DNA from: a virus
Taxonomy: Duplodnaviria > Caudoviricetes
Virus record (IMG/VR): IMGVR_UViG_3300037465_000378
Coordinates: 1 to 27,392 of that record
Strand: one strand, 5' to 3'
DNA: 27,392 bases
A program made the position numbers and the translations under genes. Of this stretch, positions 6,137 to 21,289 are shown one piece after another. The notes beneath the pieces were generated by a model, which was not told where the DNA came from, did no database searches, and was given only the letters and a program-made list of their open reading frames with translations. Each line of letters begins with the position of its first letter. The stretch's first letter is position 1.

Positions 6137-8815
6137 TTAGACAGCGGCGAACCGCTTAGAGCCTCCCATACTGAAACCGGTTATCTTGCCTGCCTTGTAG
6201 AGCTTCTTACCCTCCTCATCCAGCTTAACTCCAATGATCCACGTTCCCGGCGTCCACTCCTTTCCGAGAACCTTGTCGCCTTTTTCGGTTACGTAGGAGA
6301 AGACCACCTTACTCTTGCTCATCTTGCCGTGCTGGACGCGAACTTGGGGGTTTGTCATGAAATCCTCAGCAGCCTTTCGCACATCGTCCTCGTTTGCGTA
6401 TTCGTTTTGCAAATCTACCTTACCGGGCTCGTATGCCACGCCGTAGACAATTCCACGTTCTTTCGCCTTTTTGAGTTCAGAGGTGTCAGTTTTGAGTAGG
6501 GGGACAGATTTCCCTAAACCAGGAGGCGGGTCCTCGTCACGCAGATCCGCCAAGTCCTCCTTGAGGGACTTGCCTAGTTTGCTCGCCAACTCGTCCAGAA
6601 CATTCACAGTTTCCTCATGTAAGTGATCTAAGGTAGAAATGCTGCGGCGTTCCGTAATCGCTTTCTTGTATCTGTTCAGTTGGCGCTTAGCACGCACCTT
6701 TGCTGCTGCAACATTTGAATATGGAGATTTGTCAGCGTCAGAGAAAAGTTCTTTTGCCCTTCTTTCTTCTCCAGAGAATGCTTCCTGATATCTCCGAAGA
6801 CCATCTCCCTTACCTGGACCACCCCCTCCTCTCGCACACGTATTCCCTTCTTGGAACCCTCCTTCCCCAGTTCCGCAATTCTTCTCGCACAGGATCTCAC
6901 ACGTCTCCCCATTCGCGTCCTTCTCGAACTCCACCGTCACGCCAAACATGTCTACCTCGACGCTTTTCGCTGCACCCGTGTCCCGGACTGCCTTCGCGAG
7001 CTGGACACTCGCGCCATTCACTTCAAAGAAAAAGGAATTGGAATGGGGGAGGCGCATGCCGTGAAAGATGAGGGACTTGCCTAGTTTGCTCGCCAACTCG
7101 TCCAGAACATTCACAGTTTCCTCATGTAAGTGATCTAAGGTAGAAATGCTGCGGCGTTCCGTAATCGCTTTCTTGTATCTGTTCAGTTGGCGCTTAGCAC
7201 GCACCTTTGCTGCTGCAACATTTGAATATGGAGATTTGTCAGCGTCAGAGAAAAGTTCTTTTGCCCTTCTTTCTTCTCCAGAGAATGCTTCCTGATATCT
7301 CCGAAGACCATCTCCCTTACCTGGACCACCCCCTCCTCTCGCACACGTATTCCCTTCTTGGAACCCTCCTTCCCCAGTTCCGCAATTCTTCTCGCACCTC
7401 ACCTCAATCTCGTCGCCGTCCGCGTCCTTCTGGAGAATCAGCTCCCCGTCCATCTTTCGGACGTTCTCGCCCGCTTCCTCGAGCGCCTTTTCGAGACGCT
7501 TGTCATAGGCGAAGGTGAACTCCCCGTCGGCGGTGCGCGTTCCCTTGAAGAGGTACTCGTCCTTCTCGAGACCAACCACTTCGATCACGCGCAAGCGCGC
7601 GTTGCGGTCCCAGGCGAGTTCGCCATCCAGCATCTGCTCCAGAGTCTCGACGGGAATCCCTGTGCGCTGCGCAACGTCTGTCCTCGAAAGCCCTTCATCG
7701 GCCATTGCTTCCTCAACAGACTCCGAGAATTCGTCGTCGTCGGAAGCGTACTCGGCGACGTTCTTTCTCAGGTCGTCTACAGCCTTCTTAATTGGCACGT
7801 AGACTTGCTTGACTTCCTCGCTCTCTCCAAGCACTATTTTCCCCTCTTCGACTTCGTAGGGAACTCGGAGCGTAACCTTCTTCGTGTCTCCCATCGCATA
7901 AGGCATTGCCATACCGTACATCGGTGCATCCGGGTAGACGCAGATGATCGCAACCTGCGCGTCGGGGTAGTTGCGTTCAACGTAGCTTCGTACGCCCCAC
8001 TTGTTCAGGGCGGCAGCACGAATCTGGTCGTCGAGCTCGTACGTGCTCAGACCAAGGTCTTCGTCTTTAGCCATGGACTTCTCCGATTTCTTAGAGTAGC
8101 GTCCGCCCATTTTCTGGTAGATGGAGGATACCAAGGCGTAGTAGTCGTCTACATCTTCTTGCTTATCGGCAGCAGCTTTAGCCTTTTCCCAGATGTCCTC
8201 GTCCAAGACTCCTGCGCCCTTCGAGAGTCCGCACCACTCTCCAGCGCACTTCATGGCCTTCTGCTTCGCGCTCACGCGCGATCCCTTGTGCGCGGTGTCG
8301 TAGGTGAACTCGCGCATCTCTGTCCCTTTGACGACGGCGAACTTTCCAGGACGGTAGTAAACTTCTGCGCCTTCTTCACCATCGGCCTTGCGGAACGTGC
8401 GAATCTTACGACCGTAGTTAGGATTGCGCGTTGGAGCACCTGCGTAACGCCCGACTTGCGTTCGCATTGTACGGGCAGATTCGGGAAAACGCTTCTCGAG
8501 GACCTGAGGGCGAGGACCTTCGACCTGAACCTCGACAGATTCCTCGATCCTCTCACCCGTGCTCAAATCAACGCCGAGATCAATCTCATAGCGATGGCCG
8601 GGTTCGCCGCCCTTGACCATGTAATGCACTTCCGTGCCTTTGACGTCGGCTCTGTTGCTTTCGAGGAGAACGTTCGAAGCATCCTCACCGCTGTCAAGGT
8701 CTCTTGCGGTGACAGAACAAGCGGCAATGCCCGCGTCTGCGGGTAGCGCTTTTGCGAGATCGAAGACTTGTCTGTAACGTTCCCCGGGCTTCTTTACGGC
8801 CTTTACTTCTGCCAC
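6137..8815 (-). CDS. Multidomain head polyprotein ending in an XkdF-like prohead serine protease
   Basis: 892 aa, GTG start with GAGG. C-terminal 'GIVYGVAYEPGKVDLQNE...VRKAAEDFM...QHG...PGTWIIGVK...KAGKITGFSMGG' is the XkdF-like protease. Also an N-terminal Ig-like adaptor-type domain (KKPGE..FD), an XRE-type HTH (GLSRTDVAQRTGIPVETLEQMLDG) and two identical cassette domains. Confidence 0.85.
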   Translation of the reverse strand: MAEVKAVKKPGERYRQVFDLAKALPADAGIAACSVTARDLDSGEDASNVLLESNRADVKGTEVHYMVKGGEPGHRYEIDLGVDLSTGERIEESVEVQVEGPRPQVLEKRFPESARTMRTQVGRYAGAPTRNPNYGRKIRTFRKADGEEGAEVYYRPGKFAVVKGTEMREFTYDTAHKGSRVSAKQKAMKCAGEWCGLSKGAGVLDEDIWEKAKAAADKQEDVDDYYALVSSIYQKMGGRYSKKSEKSMAKDEDLGLSTYELDDQIRAAALNKWGVRSYVERNYPDAQVAIICVYPDAPMYGMAMPYAMGDTKKVTLRVPYEVEEGKIVLGESEEVKQVYVPIKKAVDDLRKNVAEYASDDDEFSESVEEAMADEGLSRTDVAQRTGIPVETLEQMLDGELAWDRNARLRVIEVVGLEKDEYLFKGTRTADGEFTFAYDKRLEKALEEAGENVRKMDGELILQKDADGDEIEVRCEKNCGTGEGGFQEGNTCARGGGGPGKGDGLRRYQEAFSGEERRAKELFSDADKSPYSNVAAAKVRAKRQLNRYKKAITERRSISTLDHLHEETVNVLDELASKLGKSLIFHGMRLPHSNSFFFEVNGASVQLAKAVRDTGAAKSVEVDMFGVTVEFEKDANGETCEILCEKNCGTGEGGFQEGNTCARGGGGPGKGDGLRRYQEAFSGEERRAKELFSDADKSPYSNVAAAKVRAKRQLNRYKKAITERRSISTLDHLHEETVNVLDELASKLGKSLKEDLADLRDEDPPPGLGKSVPLLKTDTSELKKAKERGIVYGVAYEPGKVDLQNEYANEDDVRKAAEDFMTNPQVRVQHGKMSKSKVVFSYVTEKGDKVLGKEWTPGTWIIGVKLDEEGKKLYKAGKITGFSMGGSKRFAAV
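6562..6890. repeat. 329-bp exact direct repeat, copy 1 (in-frame cassette)
   Basis: Identical by visual comparison to 7069-7397 (offset 507 bp = 169 codons). Encodes CEKNCGTGEGGFQEGNTC...LASKLGKSL. Confidence 0.95.
7069..7397. repeat. 329-bp exact direct repeat, copy 2 (in-frame cassette)
   Basis: Identical to 6562-6890. Confidence 0.95.
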
Positions 8816-13954: not shown

Positions 13955-16900
13955 CTACGTTCCAGGTCGCGGAGCTCTCAGTTCTGGAGGCTTTCCCGGA
14001 GTTCCTGGATTCACCCAAAAGTGCGCGCCGACGGCCTTGTATCTTGCCCACTCCTCGCTCTCAATCTTCTCTCCCACGAGTGTCTCGAGAGTCGCTTTGT
14101 CTTGCGCAACGATTGCGCTGAGTGCTCGAACAGCTTTCTGCGTCTCTGTCCCGGAAGTCGGTTCCGGTAGCTTGGCTGCGCGAAGCTGATTGATGAACCC
14201 GCGTGCGTCTGATGGAGAGACTTCCGTTGCAACCAGATGCTGCCGAACCGCATTCTGAATCTGCTGCAACGGAGCCTTTGACCCGATTCGGATCAAACCC
14301 TCGTCCGGGTCGTAATCAACCCCGCGTCCACGGATTTTCTTGACACCAAGACTGTCCACGTCCTTCGGATCGAGCCCTGCTGTCTGTCCTCGCGGAAGCT
14401 TGCGGACAGCCTCCCGAATTTTTTCTTCGATGTCTTCATCGGTTTCGTCGTCTTCCCAATTGAGTTCAAGTTCGTCTCCGAGAGTGTCTGTGGTTTCGAT
14501 GTCGCGGCGGACTAGCTCTGTGCAGCGACAATTAGAGTAGGTTATGCCCTTTTCGTTTATAATTAACCCGGACACCGTTTCGAGGTCATAGACATGCCCA
14601 GAGTAGTCGAAGTGCCTAACATAGAGAATCTCATCCGTCTCTACAAATCCGGGATACCTCTCTATAAGCTTTCGGAAGCTTCCAAAATTAAAGGAGAGAC
14701 GTTGAGGAACAAGCTCCTGCAGCACGGCGTTAAGTTGCGAGTCTATCGCAATAACAGGAAACCGCGCCCGCAGGGAATCCTTAAGGAAATCGTCAGGCTT
14801 TACACTCAAGGCGCAACGTTTCAGGAGATAAAGGAACAGACAGGCGTTGATCGAAGAAGGTCTAGGACATGGACGCTTGAAGCTGGTATCAGGATCAGGA
14901 CGATGAGCGAGGTCGAGGCTCTCAAATGGAACAAATTCGGTTTCAATCGAGCTTTCGTCGAGAGGCAGTGTCACCGTGCATGGGCTGCTCGAAGGAAGCA
15001 ACGCGAGAAGGAACCTCTTTCGATTAGGCTGAGACGCGCCATCGGAATGGAACGAGCAAGGGCGAGAAGAGGTCTCTATGAGCGGGAGCTTGAGCAGCTC
15101 TTCCTGAAGGCAGGACATCAAGTCACTCCGCAGTGCGCGATTGGCAGATACAACACTGACTTTGGCTTCAAACCCTTGCGCGTCGCCATGGAACTCCAGA
15201 TCTCCAACCATAACGTTCCTGGGTCTGGAGTCTCTTGCAAGCGCGTTAAAGATATCCTCGACAGGAACTGGGCTGTTCTTCTGATCTGGGTCCCGCAAAG
15301 ACAACGCGTTAAAGTCTCCGCAATAGCGAAGAAGGCGATCGCATTTCTTGAGCGCGCCCGCAGAGACAAGTCCATTTACAGTAAGTACGGGATGATTAAC
15401 GGTAAGGGTCAGCCGTTCACCCCGTCTCGTCACGATCTCCACAGCCTTCCCAGAATAAAAGGCTTTTGATGCTCCAAGGAATTCACCCCAAACTTTGTTG
15501 CCCGGCAGAATGCAGTTGATGATGTTCCCAGGAGAACCCTCAGGATCGCCCGGAAACATTAATTCCTCATTGTCCACGATGTACGGCTCGTCGATCGCAA
15601 CAACCTGACCGTTCGCCTCAAGATGAGCAGGGCGCGTGCGCTCATCAAGGGAAGCAAGCCACTGGCGATGCGTTACGCCGTTCTGAACCATTGCCTCGTG
15701 CGCACCTTTCATCACAGCAAGATGGCTCTCGGTCCGTGCAATGCGCTGCGCGCGAGCCTTGCCGAAAATTCCAAGCCCTTCTAGCCGTTCGATCAGCTCC
15801 TTTTCAGTCTCGCTCTCGAGCCTTCCTTGCGCAAGCGCGCGCTTAACTTCTGTTGCTGTCGCTTCGTCCATGACCTTTTCGAGGTTACTCTTCCGTTCGC
15901 GAATGAACTTTTGGACATCAGGATCTTCTTCGCGCCAGTTCACCTTCATCTGAGAAGCTTGCAGGTCACCACCCTGCGTAACAGCGGCTCCGAATTGCTT
16001 GTCGAAACTGTCTGGCAGTGGTGTATCCGCGAGCGCGTCGAAGAGCTCCTCATCGGAAATGCCTGGGTCATCAGCGGGATCACTGTCGGCTTTGCGCAGC
16101 TTGCGCATTAGAAGCGCTAGGACGCGCTTTCGCTGGGAAGCGAGGCGATCGGCCGCTAGAGCTTCTATCGCGCGTGATATGGGAGCTTCTACGCCCAAAC
16201 GGGCCTTCTCCATGCGGTAGGGGGTGGAGGGAAGCTGAGTCGTGTCCTTCTTCAACAACTTGAATTCCGGCGGGTAGTACGTGTGTTCTTTTCCACCTTC
16301 AAGAACAGTTATAGAGTGTATCCCAAGTTTTGTCCCGCGTTCTGTCCCGACACCAATTCCTCCATCAATTGCTACGTTCGCACCCTTCAGATCTGAGTGC
16401 TCGTGCATTAGATCACCATACGGGTTTTCTGGGTTGTATCGCTGGTCCGGTATGATTTTCCTGTAGTCTTTATTAGGAACCCGAATTCTGACAATGGCCT
16501 TGTCCTTTGTAGTTATGAAGCCGCTAGGTTCACCAATAGTTCCAAAATTTGCTTCGTCACGTAACCCAGAACTAGCAATTCCCGGAACTCGGTCCAAAGT
16601 TGTTTCGTGGAAGATAAAGAGGCCTTTTGGAAATTTCGTATTCAGAGCAACACGGAATTCTTTCTCTGTTCTTCTAGGAGTTTGCCCTTCCCCCCCACTC
16701 CCCCCCGCCCCGCACGTATTCCCCTCCTGAAATCCCCCCGCTCCTGTTCTGCAATTCTTTTGCAACTTCTGCATCATCCCCGCGAGCCGTTCCCAATCTG
16801 GTATCTCATCCTTATCCTGGTATTTCTTCCGCGCGTCGCGGATAGCCTCATGCAGCTCGTCATACTCCTGCGCCTCGTCCTCGGCCTCGTGCAAATGGCC

Positions 16901-17785
16901 GATGATCCGCAGCCTGTACTCGTAACCGTCGCGCTCCTCGCCCATCAGGACCATCGCCGCGCCGAGGTGCTTCTCGACGCAGTGGAGGCAGGAGGGGCGG
17001 GTCTCGGGGCCTTCTGCCTTTTTGAGATTGACTTGCTCTACCACGATCACCTTCTTGAATTTCGTGCTGCCTTTGTAAGCCCTTGGCAGTTTAACTCTCT
17101 CACCCTTGCGAACTTCAACCACCCGGTAGTTACCAAACGTCAGGTGTTCTTTGTGTGCCTTGCCGGTCAAACGATCTACCGAGAGAGTTTGTGATGGCCC
17201 GCGAACTTCAATCAAGTACGAGTGCTTGTCACCAGCATAGAACGCTGCTGAGTCCTTTGCTTCTGTGTACGACGTCAACTTCTTTTCTTCCAAACTATCA
17301 CCAACCCTGGCGTTCTCGAACTGGCTTATCGGATTTTTGGAACCGATTCCACGAAACAACGTCTTGCTGGTGATGGGCTCAATACGGACTTGATCAACCA
17401 GCAACTTCGCAGCGGCAGAAAAATCCTGGAATTTCTCACCAAACTCATTTTCAGTTTCGTCTGGTCCTCCTTTCGAGTCAATGTACTCTACCAACCCTTT
17501 GTCGCCGTGTTCGATGTAGTATTCGCTTGCCTTTGTAATCGTGGCTCCCCCGCTAAAGTCTGCGTTTAATTTTGCAGCGCGCTCCATCGTCATACTTTTA
17601 ATGGACTGATTGAGGGAATTGAGCGTACGGCCATCTCCGGCTCCACAGGCATTCCCCTCCTGAAACCCGGGAGCTCCTTCCTCTCCCGCGCTGCAATCCT
17701 TCGCCATCTCCACCGCGCGTACGAGGTCGTCGACGCGGAAGAACGGGCCACGCTGGAGGGAGCGAATTCGGGAAACAACGCTCAT
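13955..17785 (-). CDS. MuF / SPP1 gp7-like minor head protein with N-terminal ADP-ribosyltransferase-like cargo domains and an intein
   Basis: Start at 17785 (ATGA overlap with the portal stop). MuF motifs 'RAQRIARTE', 'RQWLASLDERTRPAHLEANGQ', 'LMFPGDP..S..NIIN/CRC'. ART-like motifs 'LFRG..TSYT..KEHL' and 'IFHETT..GIASSGL'. Confidence 0.9.
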   Translation of the reverse strand: MSVVSRIRSLQRGPFFRVDDLVRAVEMAKDCSAGEEGAPGFQEGNACGAGDGRTLNSLNQSIKSMTMERAAKLNADFSGGATITKASEYYIEHGDKGLVEYIDSKGGPDETENEFGEKFQDFSAAAKLLVDQVRIEPITSKTLFRGIGSKNPISQFENARVGDSLEEKKLTSYTEAKDSAAFYAGDKHSYLIEVRGPSQTLSVDRLTGKAHKEHLTFGNYRVVEVRKGERVKLPRAYKGSTKFKKVIVVEQVNLKKAEGPETRPSCLHCVEKHLGAAMVLMGEERDGYEYRLRIIGHLHEAEDEAQEYDELHEAIRDARKKYQDKDEIPDWERLAGMMQKLQKNCRTGAGGFQEGNTCGAGGSGGEGQTPRRTEKEFRVALNTKFPKGLFIFHETTLDRVPGIASSGLRDEANFGTIGEPSGFITTKDKAIVRIRVPNKDYRKIIPDQRYNPENPYGDLMHEHSDLKGANVAIDGGIGVGTERGTKLGIHSITVLEGGKEHTYYPPEFKLLKKDTTQLPSTPYRMEKARLGVEAPISRAIEALAADRLASQRKRVLALLMRKLRKADSDPADDPGISDEELFDALADTPLPDSFDKQFGAAVTQGGDLQASQMKVNWREEDPDVQKFIRERKSNLEKVMDEATATEVKRALAQGRLESETEKELIERLEGLGIFGKARAQRIARTESHLAVMKGAHEAMVQNGVTHRQWLASLDERTRPAHLEANGQVVAIDEPYIVDNEELMFPGDPEGSPGNIINCILPGNKVWGEFLGASKAFYSGKAVEIVTRRGERLTLTVNHPVLTVNGLVSAGALKKCDRLLRYCGDFNALSLRDPDQKNSPVPVEDIFNALARDSRPRNVMVGDLEFHGDAQGFEAKVSVVSANRALRSDLMSCLQEELLKLPLIETSSRPCSFHSDGASQPNRKRFLLALLPSSSPCTVTLPLDESSIETEFVPFESLDLAHRPDPDTSFKRPCPRPSSINACLFLYLLKRCALSVKPDDFLKDSLRARFPVIAIDSQLNAVLQELVPQRLSFNFGSFRKLIERYPGFVETDEILYVRHFDYSGHVYDLETVSGLIINEKGITYSNCRCTELVRRDIETTDTLGDELELNWEDDETDEDIEEKIREAVRKLPRGQTAGLDPKDVDSLGVKKIRGRGVDYDPDEGLIRIGSKAPLQQIQNAVRQHLVATEVSPSDARGFINQLRAAKLPEPTSGTETQKAVRALSAIVAQDKATLETLVGEKIESEEWARYKAVGAHFWVNPGTPGKPPELRAPRPGT
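14558..14563 (+). promoter_or_regulatory. Candidate -10 box (TATAAT) for the antisense endonuclease gene
   Basis: Perfect TATAAT ending 30 nt upstream of ATG 14594; GAGG SD at 14582-14585; no convincing -35. Confidence 0.4.
14594..15469 (+). CDS. HTH + Vsr/DUF559-like (PD-(D/E)xK) putative homing endonuclease, antisense and nested inside the intein
   Basis: 291 aa, basic. Two HTH-like repeats (IRLYKSGIPLYKLSEASKI..TLRNKL; VRLYTQGATFQEIKEQTGV..), then 'YERELEQLF..QCAIGRYNTDFG...RVAMELQISNH...NWAVLLIW'. SD GAGG 8 nt before the ATG. Confidence 0.82.
   Translation: MPRVVEVPNIENLIRLYKSGIPLYKLSEASKIKGETLRNKLLQHGVKLRVYRNNRKPRPQGILKEIVRLYTQGATFQEIKEQTGVDRRRSRTWTLEAGIRIRTMSEVEALKWNKFGFNRAFVERQCHRAWAARRKQREKEPLSIRLRRAIGMERARARRGLYERELEQLFLKAGHQVTPQCAIGRYNTDFGFKPLRVAMELQISNHNVPGSGVSCKRVKDILDRNWAVLLIWVPQRQRVKVSAIAKKAIAFLERARRDKSIYSKYGMINGKGQPFTPSRHDLHSLPRIKGF
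16247..16759 (-). other. Motif-headed cargo cassette 2 in MuF: H-x-T type ADP-ribosyltransferase-like domain
   Basis: Begins KNCRTGAGGFQEGNTC, contains 'LFIFHETTLDRVPGIASSGLR', ends LLKK|D; AT-richer than the flanks. Confidence 0.55.
17018..17701 (-). other. Motif-headed cargo cassette 1 in MuF: R-S-E type ADP-ribosyltransferase domain
   Basis: Begins KDCSAGEEGAPGFQEGNAC. 'TLFRGIG', 'VGDSL', 'LTSYT', 'AAFYA', 'YLIEV', 'KEHL..GNYRVVEV' follow the order of exoenzyme/Alt-like ART motifs. Ends NLKK|A. Confidence 0.75.
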
Positions 17786-20830: not shown

Positions 20831-21289
20831 TTAGTCCTTTTTAAGGTCAGCGTCTTCAACTGCTTGTATAGCCTTGTCGGGCGTGTCAACTGTCACCACA
20901 CGCTCTCCAATTTGAACGTCTCTCAGAACGTCGTAGTCCTTTCTGGTTTTCACTTGATAGGCATTTCCTGCTACTTTGGTAATCTTCGCAAAGGCGTTCT
21001 TTTCCTTACCAAACTCGGTATGCCCTTCCCCAACAACAAGGTCCACGCTCCGACCTACTTTAAGGCCCCTTACAGCTTGCTTAAATGCCTCTGATCTCAG
21101 CTGCGCTTTGCCGTAATATCTGGAACCTTTTCCTATTGATTCGCCCTGCTTGTAATCCTTCCATCTAGACGTTTCTGCTACGGAACCCCCACCCCCAGCA
21201 CCGCATGTGTTCCCCTCCTGGAATCCACCCGCACCACTTCCACAGTTCTTGATCAACTTCATCAGTCTGCCGTCGTATTCGTGGCTCAT
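20831..21289 (-). CDS. Stand-alone motif-headed cargo protein
   Basis: 152 aa: short leader, then KNCGSGAGGFQEGNTCGAGGGG, a basic AT-rich domain, ending DLKKD*. ATGA-coupled. Confidence 0.75.
   Translation of the reverse strand: MSHEYDGRLMKLIKNCGSGAGGFQEGNTCGAGGGGSVAETSRWKDYKQGESIGKGSRYYGKAQLRSEAFKQAVRGLKVGRSVDLVVGEGHTEFGKEKNAFAKITKVAGNAYQVKTRKDYDVLRDVQIGERVVTVDTPDKAIQAVEDADLKKD

Follow-up and report, generated by a model that had tools for sequence, protein, structure and literature searches.

Anti-sense VSR-like endonucleases have been described in full inteins of actinophages by Gosselin, Arsenault and Gogarten (bioRxiv 10.1101/2025.01.02.630785). In the portions of that preprint covered here, minor capsid hosts (IPR006528) hold only non-canonical inteins in their data, the secondary ORF typically lies outside the splicing domain (given as a trend) and older anti-sense LAGLIDADG cases are cited. 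A cyanobacterial dnaX intein carries an out-of-frame LAGLIDADG endonuclease (bioRxiv 10.64898/2026.09.14.751524), and an insertion in a phage methylase, that of ShiLan, hides an HNH endonuclease (PMC11855218), both as given in the parts of these sources covered. According to the covered part of its description, I-Bth0305I, of the EDxHD homing endonuclease family (PMC3239194; PDB 3R3P), belongs to enzymes whose genes lie within a group I intron or next to split inteins.

The locus described here resembles the inteins of Gosselin et al., as far as the covered portions describe them, in having an uninterrupted intein, a long anti-sense endonuclease ORF and an unstructured in-frame insert. The match to Vsr (1CW0) is also similar, with Z 10.6 over residues 144-267 in their case and Z 10.8 over 157-289 here, and both proteins also match 3R3P. 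The REQ3 minor capsid intein that they name is homologous to the present one in both frames (E 7e-35 and 3e-44), and it and the Gordonia Kewpiedoll minor capsid intein match both of our family profiles. Unlike the trend that they report, the antisense ORF here overlaps the splicing blocks (codons 16-307); their survey is of actinophages, whereas relatives found here include phages of Vibrio, Edwardsiella, Salmonella, Klebsiella and Pseudomonas, together with many uncultured ones. The covered portions of the preprint contain no analysis of starts, Shine-Dalgarno sequences or promoters and no selection test, all of which are given below. The dnaX intein, in the part of its preprint covered, likewise has a separate overlapping endonuclease ORF inside the intein, with its own Shine-Dalgarno motifs and purifying selection, but it differs in its LAGLIDADG enzyme, +2 frame and bacterial host gene. 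From the covered text, the ShiLan insertion is similar in that a stop-free in-frame insert hides an endonuclease in another frame, and it differs in that the enzyme is of the HNH type and the insert is not identified as an intein. The layout, which the initial annotation had implied to be novel, is already described in outline by Gosselin et al. in the portions covered; what appears to be new is how the nuclease gene overlaps the splicing blocks and how widely the family is spread. Neither overlap of an antisense nuclease gene with splicing blocks nor a spread of the family far beyond actinophages was found in the searched literature, which comprised openly accessible papers and the covered portions of the Gosselin et al. 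preprint.

The window, the whole stretch of DNA that was analysed, is a 27-kb virus record (27,392 nucleotides) in which the terminase, portal, MuF, protease and capsid genes all lie on the minus strand. The MuF ORF (17797-13955) matches Pfam Phage_Mu_F (PF04233) at residues 649-762 (E 4e-13) and is interrupted by the intein at NIIN|CRC. The DNA of this intein very probably codes on both strands: the minus strand for the intein, and the plus strand for a separate protein with HTH units and a Vsr-like domain, a likely homing endonuclease expressed from its own antisense promoter (Table 1).

Table 1. Coordinates of features in the window, with the evidence on which each assignment rests
Feature	Position	Strand	Basis
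Host gene, MuF-type head morphogenesis (minor capsid) protein, 1280 aa	13955..17797	-	ORF list; Pfam; PHROG head morphogenesis families
Intein, 328 aa, class 1 type (Cys1, TxxH, block F, Ser-Asn end, +1 Cys)	14531..15514	-	Translation; family profile against solved inteins; Hint fold match
Confidently modelled N-terminal intein part (about residues 1-125), with block B and HGD motif (109-111) conserved in both frames	15140..15514	-	pLDDT; column conservation
Intein insert (about residues 127-272), predicted disordered, shaped by opposite strand	14699..15136	-	pLDDT mostly <50; third codon position above first in conservation
Antisense gene, 291 aa, predicted HTH-HTH-helical linker-Vsr/DUF559-like nuclease	14594..15469	+	ORF; profiles; model; structure matches
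Two HTH-like units (residues about 10-43, 60-96)	14621..14881	+	Model helices; 2LVS profile match (E 1.7e-5); phrog_323 (E 7.5e-7)
Vsr/DUF559-like nuclease domain (residues about 157-269), with E163, D189, E200, H206, R217	15062..15400	+	Profile; structure matches; conservation counts
Start codon ATG, reverse complement of block F His307 codon	14594..14596	+	CAT usage among 80 inteins
Shine-Dalgarno-like GAGGT, complement of block F Tyr-Asp-Leu codon stretch	14582..14586	+	Sequence; Leu codon usage; Shine-Dalgarno counts
TATAAT, putative -10 box in codons between blocks F and G	14558..14563	+	30 nt before ATG
CGxGxGGFQEGNTC-like peptide copies	6828-6869, 7335-7376, 16704-16745, 17637-17678, 21195-21236		

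The 328-aa insert is predicted, from its motifs and its modelled fold, to be an intein that self-splices from the MuF head protein. The frame (15514-14531, minus strand) is stop-free and encodes Cys1, T38-V-N-H41, block F SGHVYDLE (with His307), the terminal Asn328 and a +1 Cys, in line with the original reading of the splicing blocks as intact. The penultimate residue is Ser rather than His; among 80 relatives, 35 have His and 34 have Ser at this position. A penultimate His is variable among working inteins. A profile of 62 inteins matches solved inteins (best E 2e-13), and structural comparison of the model gives Z 11-12 to Hint folds, with rmsd 1.5-3.4 over about 105-110 residues and both ends of the intein contributing to the fold; the best match is 2CW8 (Z 12.0, rmsd 1.5, 109 residues aligned); 23 chains reach Z of at least 8, and all the listed ones are Hint-type. 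Confidence is high (pLDDT >90) over residues 1-60 and 81-120, and residues 281-328 are also confidently modelled. An endonuclease encoded in frame within the insert was considered and rejected: Pfam detects no LAGLIDADG or HNH domain in the intein (its only match is a weak one to Intein_splicing), most of the insert has pLDDT <50 and its conservation tracks the opposite strand. The central insert had been described at the outset as free of LAGLIDADG and HNH motifs, and these results agree.

The plus-strand ORF is in exact antisense register with the intein. It starts with an ATG that reads as CAT, the His307 codon, on the intein strand and ends with a TGA that reads there as TCA, the Ser16 codon, and it thus spans intein codons 16-307; the coordinates confirm the initial annotation, which had placed the start opposite the block F His and the stop opposite a Ser near the intein N-terminus. 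In the protein model (mean pLDDT 91.5), two units of three helices each are followed by a helical linker and then an alpha/beta domain. A comparison with 48,161 chains ranks 1CW0 first (Z 10.8, rmsd 2.9, 114 residues aligned), ahead of 3HRL (Z 10.3) and 3R3P (Z 10.2, rmsd 2.6, 92 residues); the next match has Z 7.9. Foldseek with the same model returned nothing at E 0.001, phmmer with the single protein returned nothing under E 0.07 in the PDB and a Pfam search with this copy alone gave no match. A profile of 67 antisense proteins matches 3HRL (E 2e-8), the HTH protein 2LVS (E 1.7e-5) and Vsr 1CW0 (E 0.0085), and a smaller antisense profile matched 3R3P at E 0.011. At E 0.01, 46/67 family members match PF18741 and 17/67 match PF04480. 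The antisense product is predicted from these profiles and structural matches to be a Vsr/DUF559-type nuclease. Two HTH-like repeats followed by such a nuclease had been proposed from the sequence, with a check of folds on both strands; the Hint fold was recovered on the minus strand and DUF559/Vsr folds on the plus strand.

E163 is conserved in 65 of the 67 proteins and D189, E200 and R217 in 66 each, and a His follows E200 by 4-9 residues in 48/67 (H206 in this copy). An Asp equivalent to D222 of I-Bth0305I occurs in at most 8/67, and this copy has none in the five residues before R217. The enzyme is assigned to the Vsr/DUF559 type rather than to strict EDxHD because E163, D189, E200 and R217 are kept, the His is partial and the last Asp of the motif is missing. 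Strict EDxHD membership is rejected on the last point; of the EDxHD label in the initial annotation, the Vsr-like fold, the Glu and the Asp stand and the final Asp does not. As with I-Bth0305I, in the covered part of its description, a C-terminal Vsr-like nuclease fold lies behind N-terminal DNA-binding modules, and a Glu and an Asp are 26 residues apart (170/196 there, 163/189 here), a correspondence drawn from the spacing. The modules differ, with NUMOD there and HTH units here, and an invariant Arg is present here in place of a conserved D222. The DUF559/MTES_1575 nucleases (PF04480, PF18741; PDB 3HRL) provide the best sequence-profile match, 3HRL, but this copy matches neither Pfam model and does not keep the Asp-Gly that follows the conserved Glu of 3HRL.

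Relatives of the intein were recovered by tblastn in 113 GenBank phage records, including those of Salmonella (62), Gordonia (15), Pseudomonas (14) and Klebsiella (8) phages. All eight GenBank records that were fetched encode a long antisense ORF in the identical register; it is annotated in none of these and in one of four later records, as hypothetical. Pattern searches added 93 loci. The resulting 102 sequences yielded 91 in which both blocks were placed, and 80 distinct inteins after removal of 11 near duplicates; the 11 sequences left out because blocks were unplaced are L003, L034, L044, L056, L061, L064, L065, L068, L071, L079 and L101. The initial annotation had named conservation of the antisense frame in such inteins as a check and had regarded antisense stops in them as evidence against dual coding. 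There is no antisense stop between blocks B and F in 77 of the 80 distinct inteins, which are related sequences, so that counts among them are not independent events. Of the three exceptions, one (L099) is intact, its block B having been misplaced in the parsing, and the other two (L010 and L082) are broken genes. The antisense register contains 4 stops in 18,366 codons versus 922 and 484 in the other two antisense frames; for comparison, host genes have 241 in 15,619 codons, and 464 would be expected in the inteins from host-gene codon usage. For this copy, its own codon usage predicts 9.9 antisense stops from block B to block F, with a probability of 2e-5 of having none. The antisense ORF ends at or before intein codon 24 in 77/80.

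By codon counts, start, Shine-Dalgarno and -10 signals are favoured in synonymous codon positions of splicing blocks F and G. The block F His codon is CAT in 62/80 inteins and CAC in 18/80, giving ATG and GTG on the other strand, whereas CAT codes the block B His in only 23/80. The loci from the pattern searches were chosen by a block F pattern, which selects for the His itself and leaves codon choices free. The block F Leu codon is CTC in 69/80 versus 333/1267 in host genes, and the Shine-Dalgarno core is in place in 66/80 versus 18.5 expected. In this copy the GAGG core (14582-14585) is the complement of the Asp-Leu codons; it had been ascribed to the codons for 'DLE', of which the Glu codon contributes nothing. 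The TATAAT reported 30 nt upstream of the ATG is present at 14558-14563, and a perfect TATAAT occurs in 24/80 versus 2.3 expected, its positions concentrated 29-30 or 45 nt upstream of the start. A -10 box accompanied by a -35 match or TG is found in 30/80 versus 4.0 expected. No -35 match was found for this copy (1/6 bases), and a sigma-70 scan of 14300-15800 found no full promoter and no terminator. For a Pseudomonas prophage relative (L094), the stretch is present in 14 RNA runs, of which four contig runs are flat and unable to show strand or level and four raw-read runs have no reads there.

The lack of a -35 match in the window's copy would suit a decaying relic whose nuclease is no longer active, in a family that is otherwise a homing element. 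Such a relic would also account for changes at two family-conserved positions (G225 to N and L170 to F, with G174 kept), and broken copies do occur within the family (L010, L082). However, the frame is whole, E163, D189, E200, R217 and the His at 206 are kept, and the start, Shine-Dalgarno sequence and perfect TATAAT are in place, and we regard decay of this copy as unlikely.

A full HMMER search with the antisense protein gave 1254 clusters at E 0.001. Among the best 150 of these, block B has left its antisense imprint in 134, against 5.1 expected, and M-[PSTA] opens 118 of the sequences; the imprint indicates that the nuclease is nearly always inside such an intein and that the antisense gene travels with it. 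Host genes of 79 inteins match MuF (52) or minor capsid 2 (11) families or have no match (16), and the junction is nearly always N|C. In Guernseyvirinae, 165 records match the upstream host gene of phage LSPA1 and 70 match its intein; BUCT789 and RP180 are intein-free, and intein-free alleles among relatives read PPAHPN|CRS. The inteins of LSPA1 and nctD30 are 98.3% alike, but their upstream host genes only 69.8%; the LSPA1 upstream gene instead resembles that of intein-free BUCT789 and RP180 (92%). The switch in similarity falls within about 40 nt of the insertion site, and the downstream host gene of LSPA1 is 90% similar to nctD30 versus 79% to BUCT789. Five phages, forming one set, provide this discordance. 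It agrees with homing in which a short tract to the left was co-converted, but because the downstream host gene also follows nctD30, a single ordinary crossover could give the pattern as well. No close relative or empty allele of the window's own MuF gene was found by a word-index protein search with the antisense protein or by a search of viral contigs with the single intein; relatives came only via alignments and the full HMMER search.

These distributions bear on whether the antisense protein instead serves the phage, as a regulator or as a nuclease against competing phages or host DNA, with the intein merely sheltering its gene. The HTH units resemble those of regulators (phrog_323), the family is large and usually intact, and the lengths of antisense relatives (P0003-P0152) cluster near 235, 290, 340 and 400 aa, a spacing of about 50 aa that suggests addition of HTH units, to between one and four per protein. 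The intein imprint in 134 of the best 150 relatives, the restriction of 63/79 host genes to MuF or minor capsid 2 families with an almost constant junction, and the existence of intein-free alleles in close relatives argue against this, and such a role appears improbable, slightly more so than decay of the window's copy.

The antisense register pairs first codon positions of either frame with third positions of the other, and selection on the two strands can be compared by position. When 68 sequences were aligned by each frame, conservation was higher at the first position in the two ends of the intein (residues 1-60 and 301-328) and at the third position between about residues 121 and 290. 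The F108-H109-G110-D111 stretch is fixed in both frames, with Gly at 97% on one strand and Ala at 97% on the other, and the catalytic-type E200 opposes F108. The antisense gene also overlaps block B, with V43 opposite Y265 (93%). The intein model, which was built from the same alignment, is confident at HGD, and this motif may serve the intein protein or be a DNA-level signal. Judged from stop depletion and codon-position conservation, both strands are coding, and selection maintains an open antisense frame across the family; the dual coding and the overlap with both splicing regions claimed in the initial annotation hold up on these measures and on the coverage of codons 16-307. Long antisense frames are common over GC-rich genes and many occur in the window, but an ORF that is a codon-bias shadow of the intein frame and codes nothing can be dismissed almost with certainty, as the stop depletion far exceeds the codon-usage expectation, the family shows antisense-type codon-position conservation and the product has a confident nuclease fold.

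If the plus-strand gene is a homing endonuclease, as we favour, it would be transcribed from a promoter inside the last codons of the intein, earlier than or apart from the late head operon. Its HTH units would bind a long target, the enzyme would cut the MuF site of a phage that lacks the intein, whether co-infecting or resident, the element would be copied in when the cut is repaired from the copy that carries it, and protein splicing would restore the head protein. With somewhat less assurance, we consider it probable that the nuclease gene is woven through the splicing blocks themselves. Its start would be the complement of the invariant block F His, blocks F to G would hold its Shine-Dalgarno sequence and promoter in their synonymous positions, block B would be traversed by its C-terminal strands and its catalytic strand would lie opposite the HGD motif; in hundreds of phage lineages the two enzymes would be co-evolving inseparably, and the endonuclease would be produced at a different time from the late head protein.

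Timing is a problem for inteins in late structural genes, because replication would be over before an endonuclease encoded in frame was made. Placing the enzyme in a separate antisense gene would remove this problem and would explain minor capsid inteins without canonical endonucleases. With 474 clusters at E 1e-10, the family also offers a large collection of naturally occurring antisense gene overlaps, in which codon positions allow selection to be read separately for the two strands, and it is likely to be an untapped source of Vsr-type site-specific nucleases; annotation mostly misses the antisense genes.

Several relatives depart from the common arrangement. In L010 and L082, stops break the antisense nuclease gene and the intein frame is intact, which would correspond to a decay stage of a homing cycle. 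A short intein in L014 (1441-about 1990) has an antisense ORF of 154 aa that lacks the middle and keeps the nuclease core, with both frames open. Block A is seemingly lost or displaced in L060 and L077, where the antisense ORF passes the intein N-terminus and ends in a CxCGCG zinc-finger-like tail. In L074 (712-1617), an intein of the same family has another junction (YAH|C ... HN|SGY), and its host gene does not match MuF, which may reflect a host-gene switch. The intein-free MuF of Raoultella phage RP180 (L105, 1501-3261) has a long, ADP-ribosyltransferase-like C-terminal extension.

In the window, an ADP-ribosyltransferase-like domain is suggested in the N-terminal part of the MuF ORF (residues 100-260, about 17500-17020, minus strand) by Atlas feature matches of 0.95-0.96 to PF03496 clusters; Pfam did not detect it. 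A second such region was noted by eye at about residues 390-480 (FHETT...GL). The CGxGxGGFQEGNTC-like peptide occurs five times in three proteins, twice in the head protease ORF, twice in MuF and once in a 152-aa ORF. The XkdF-type protease gene (892 aa) contains an exact 300-nt duplication (6562-6861 and 7069-7368), either a recent duplication or an assembly artefact, and the contig end (26962-27384) encodes an Ala-rich low-complexity repeat.
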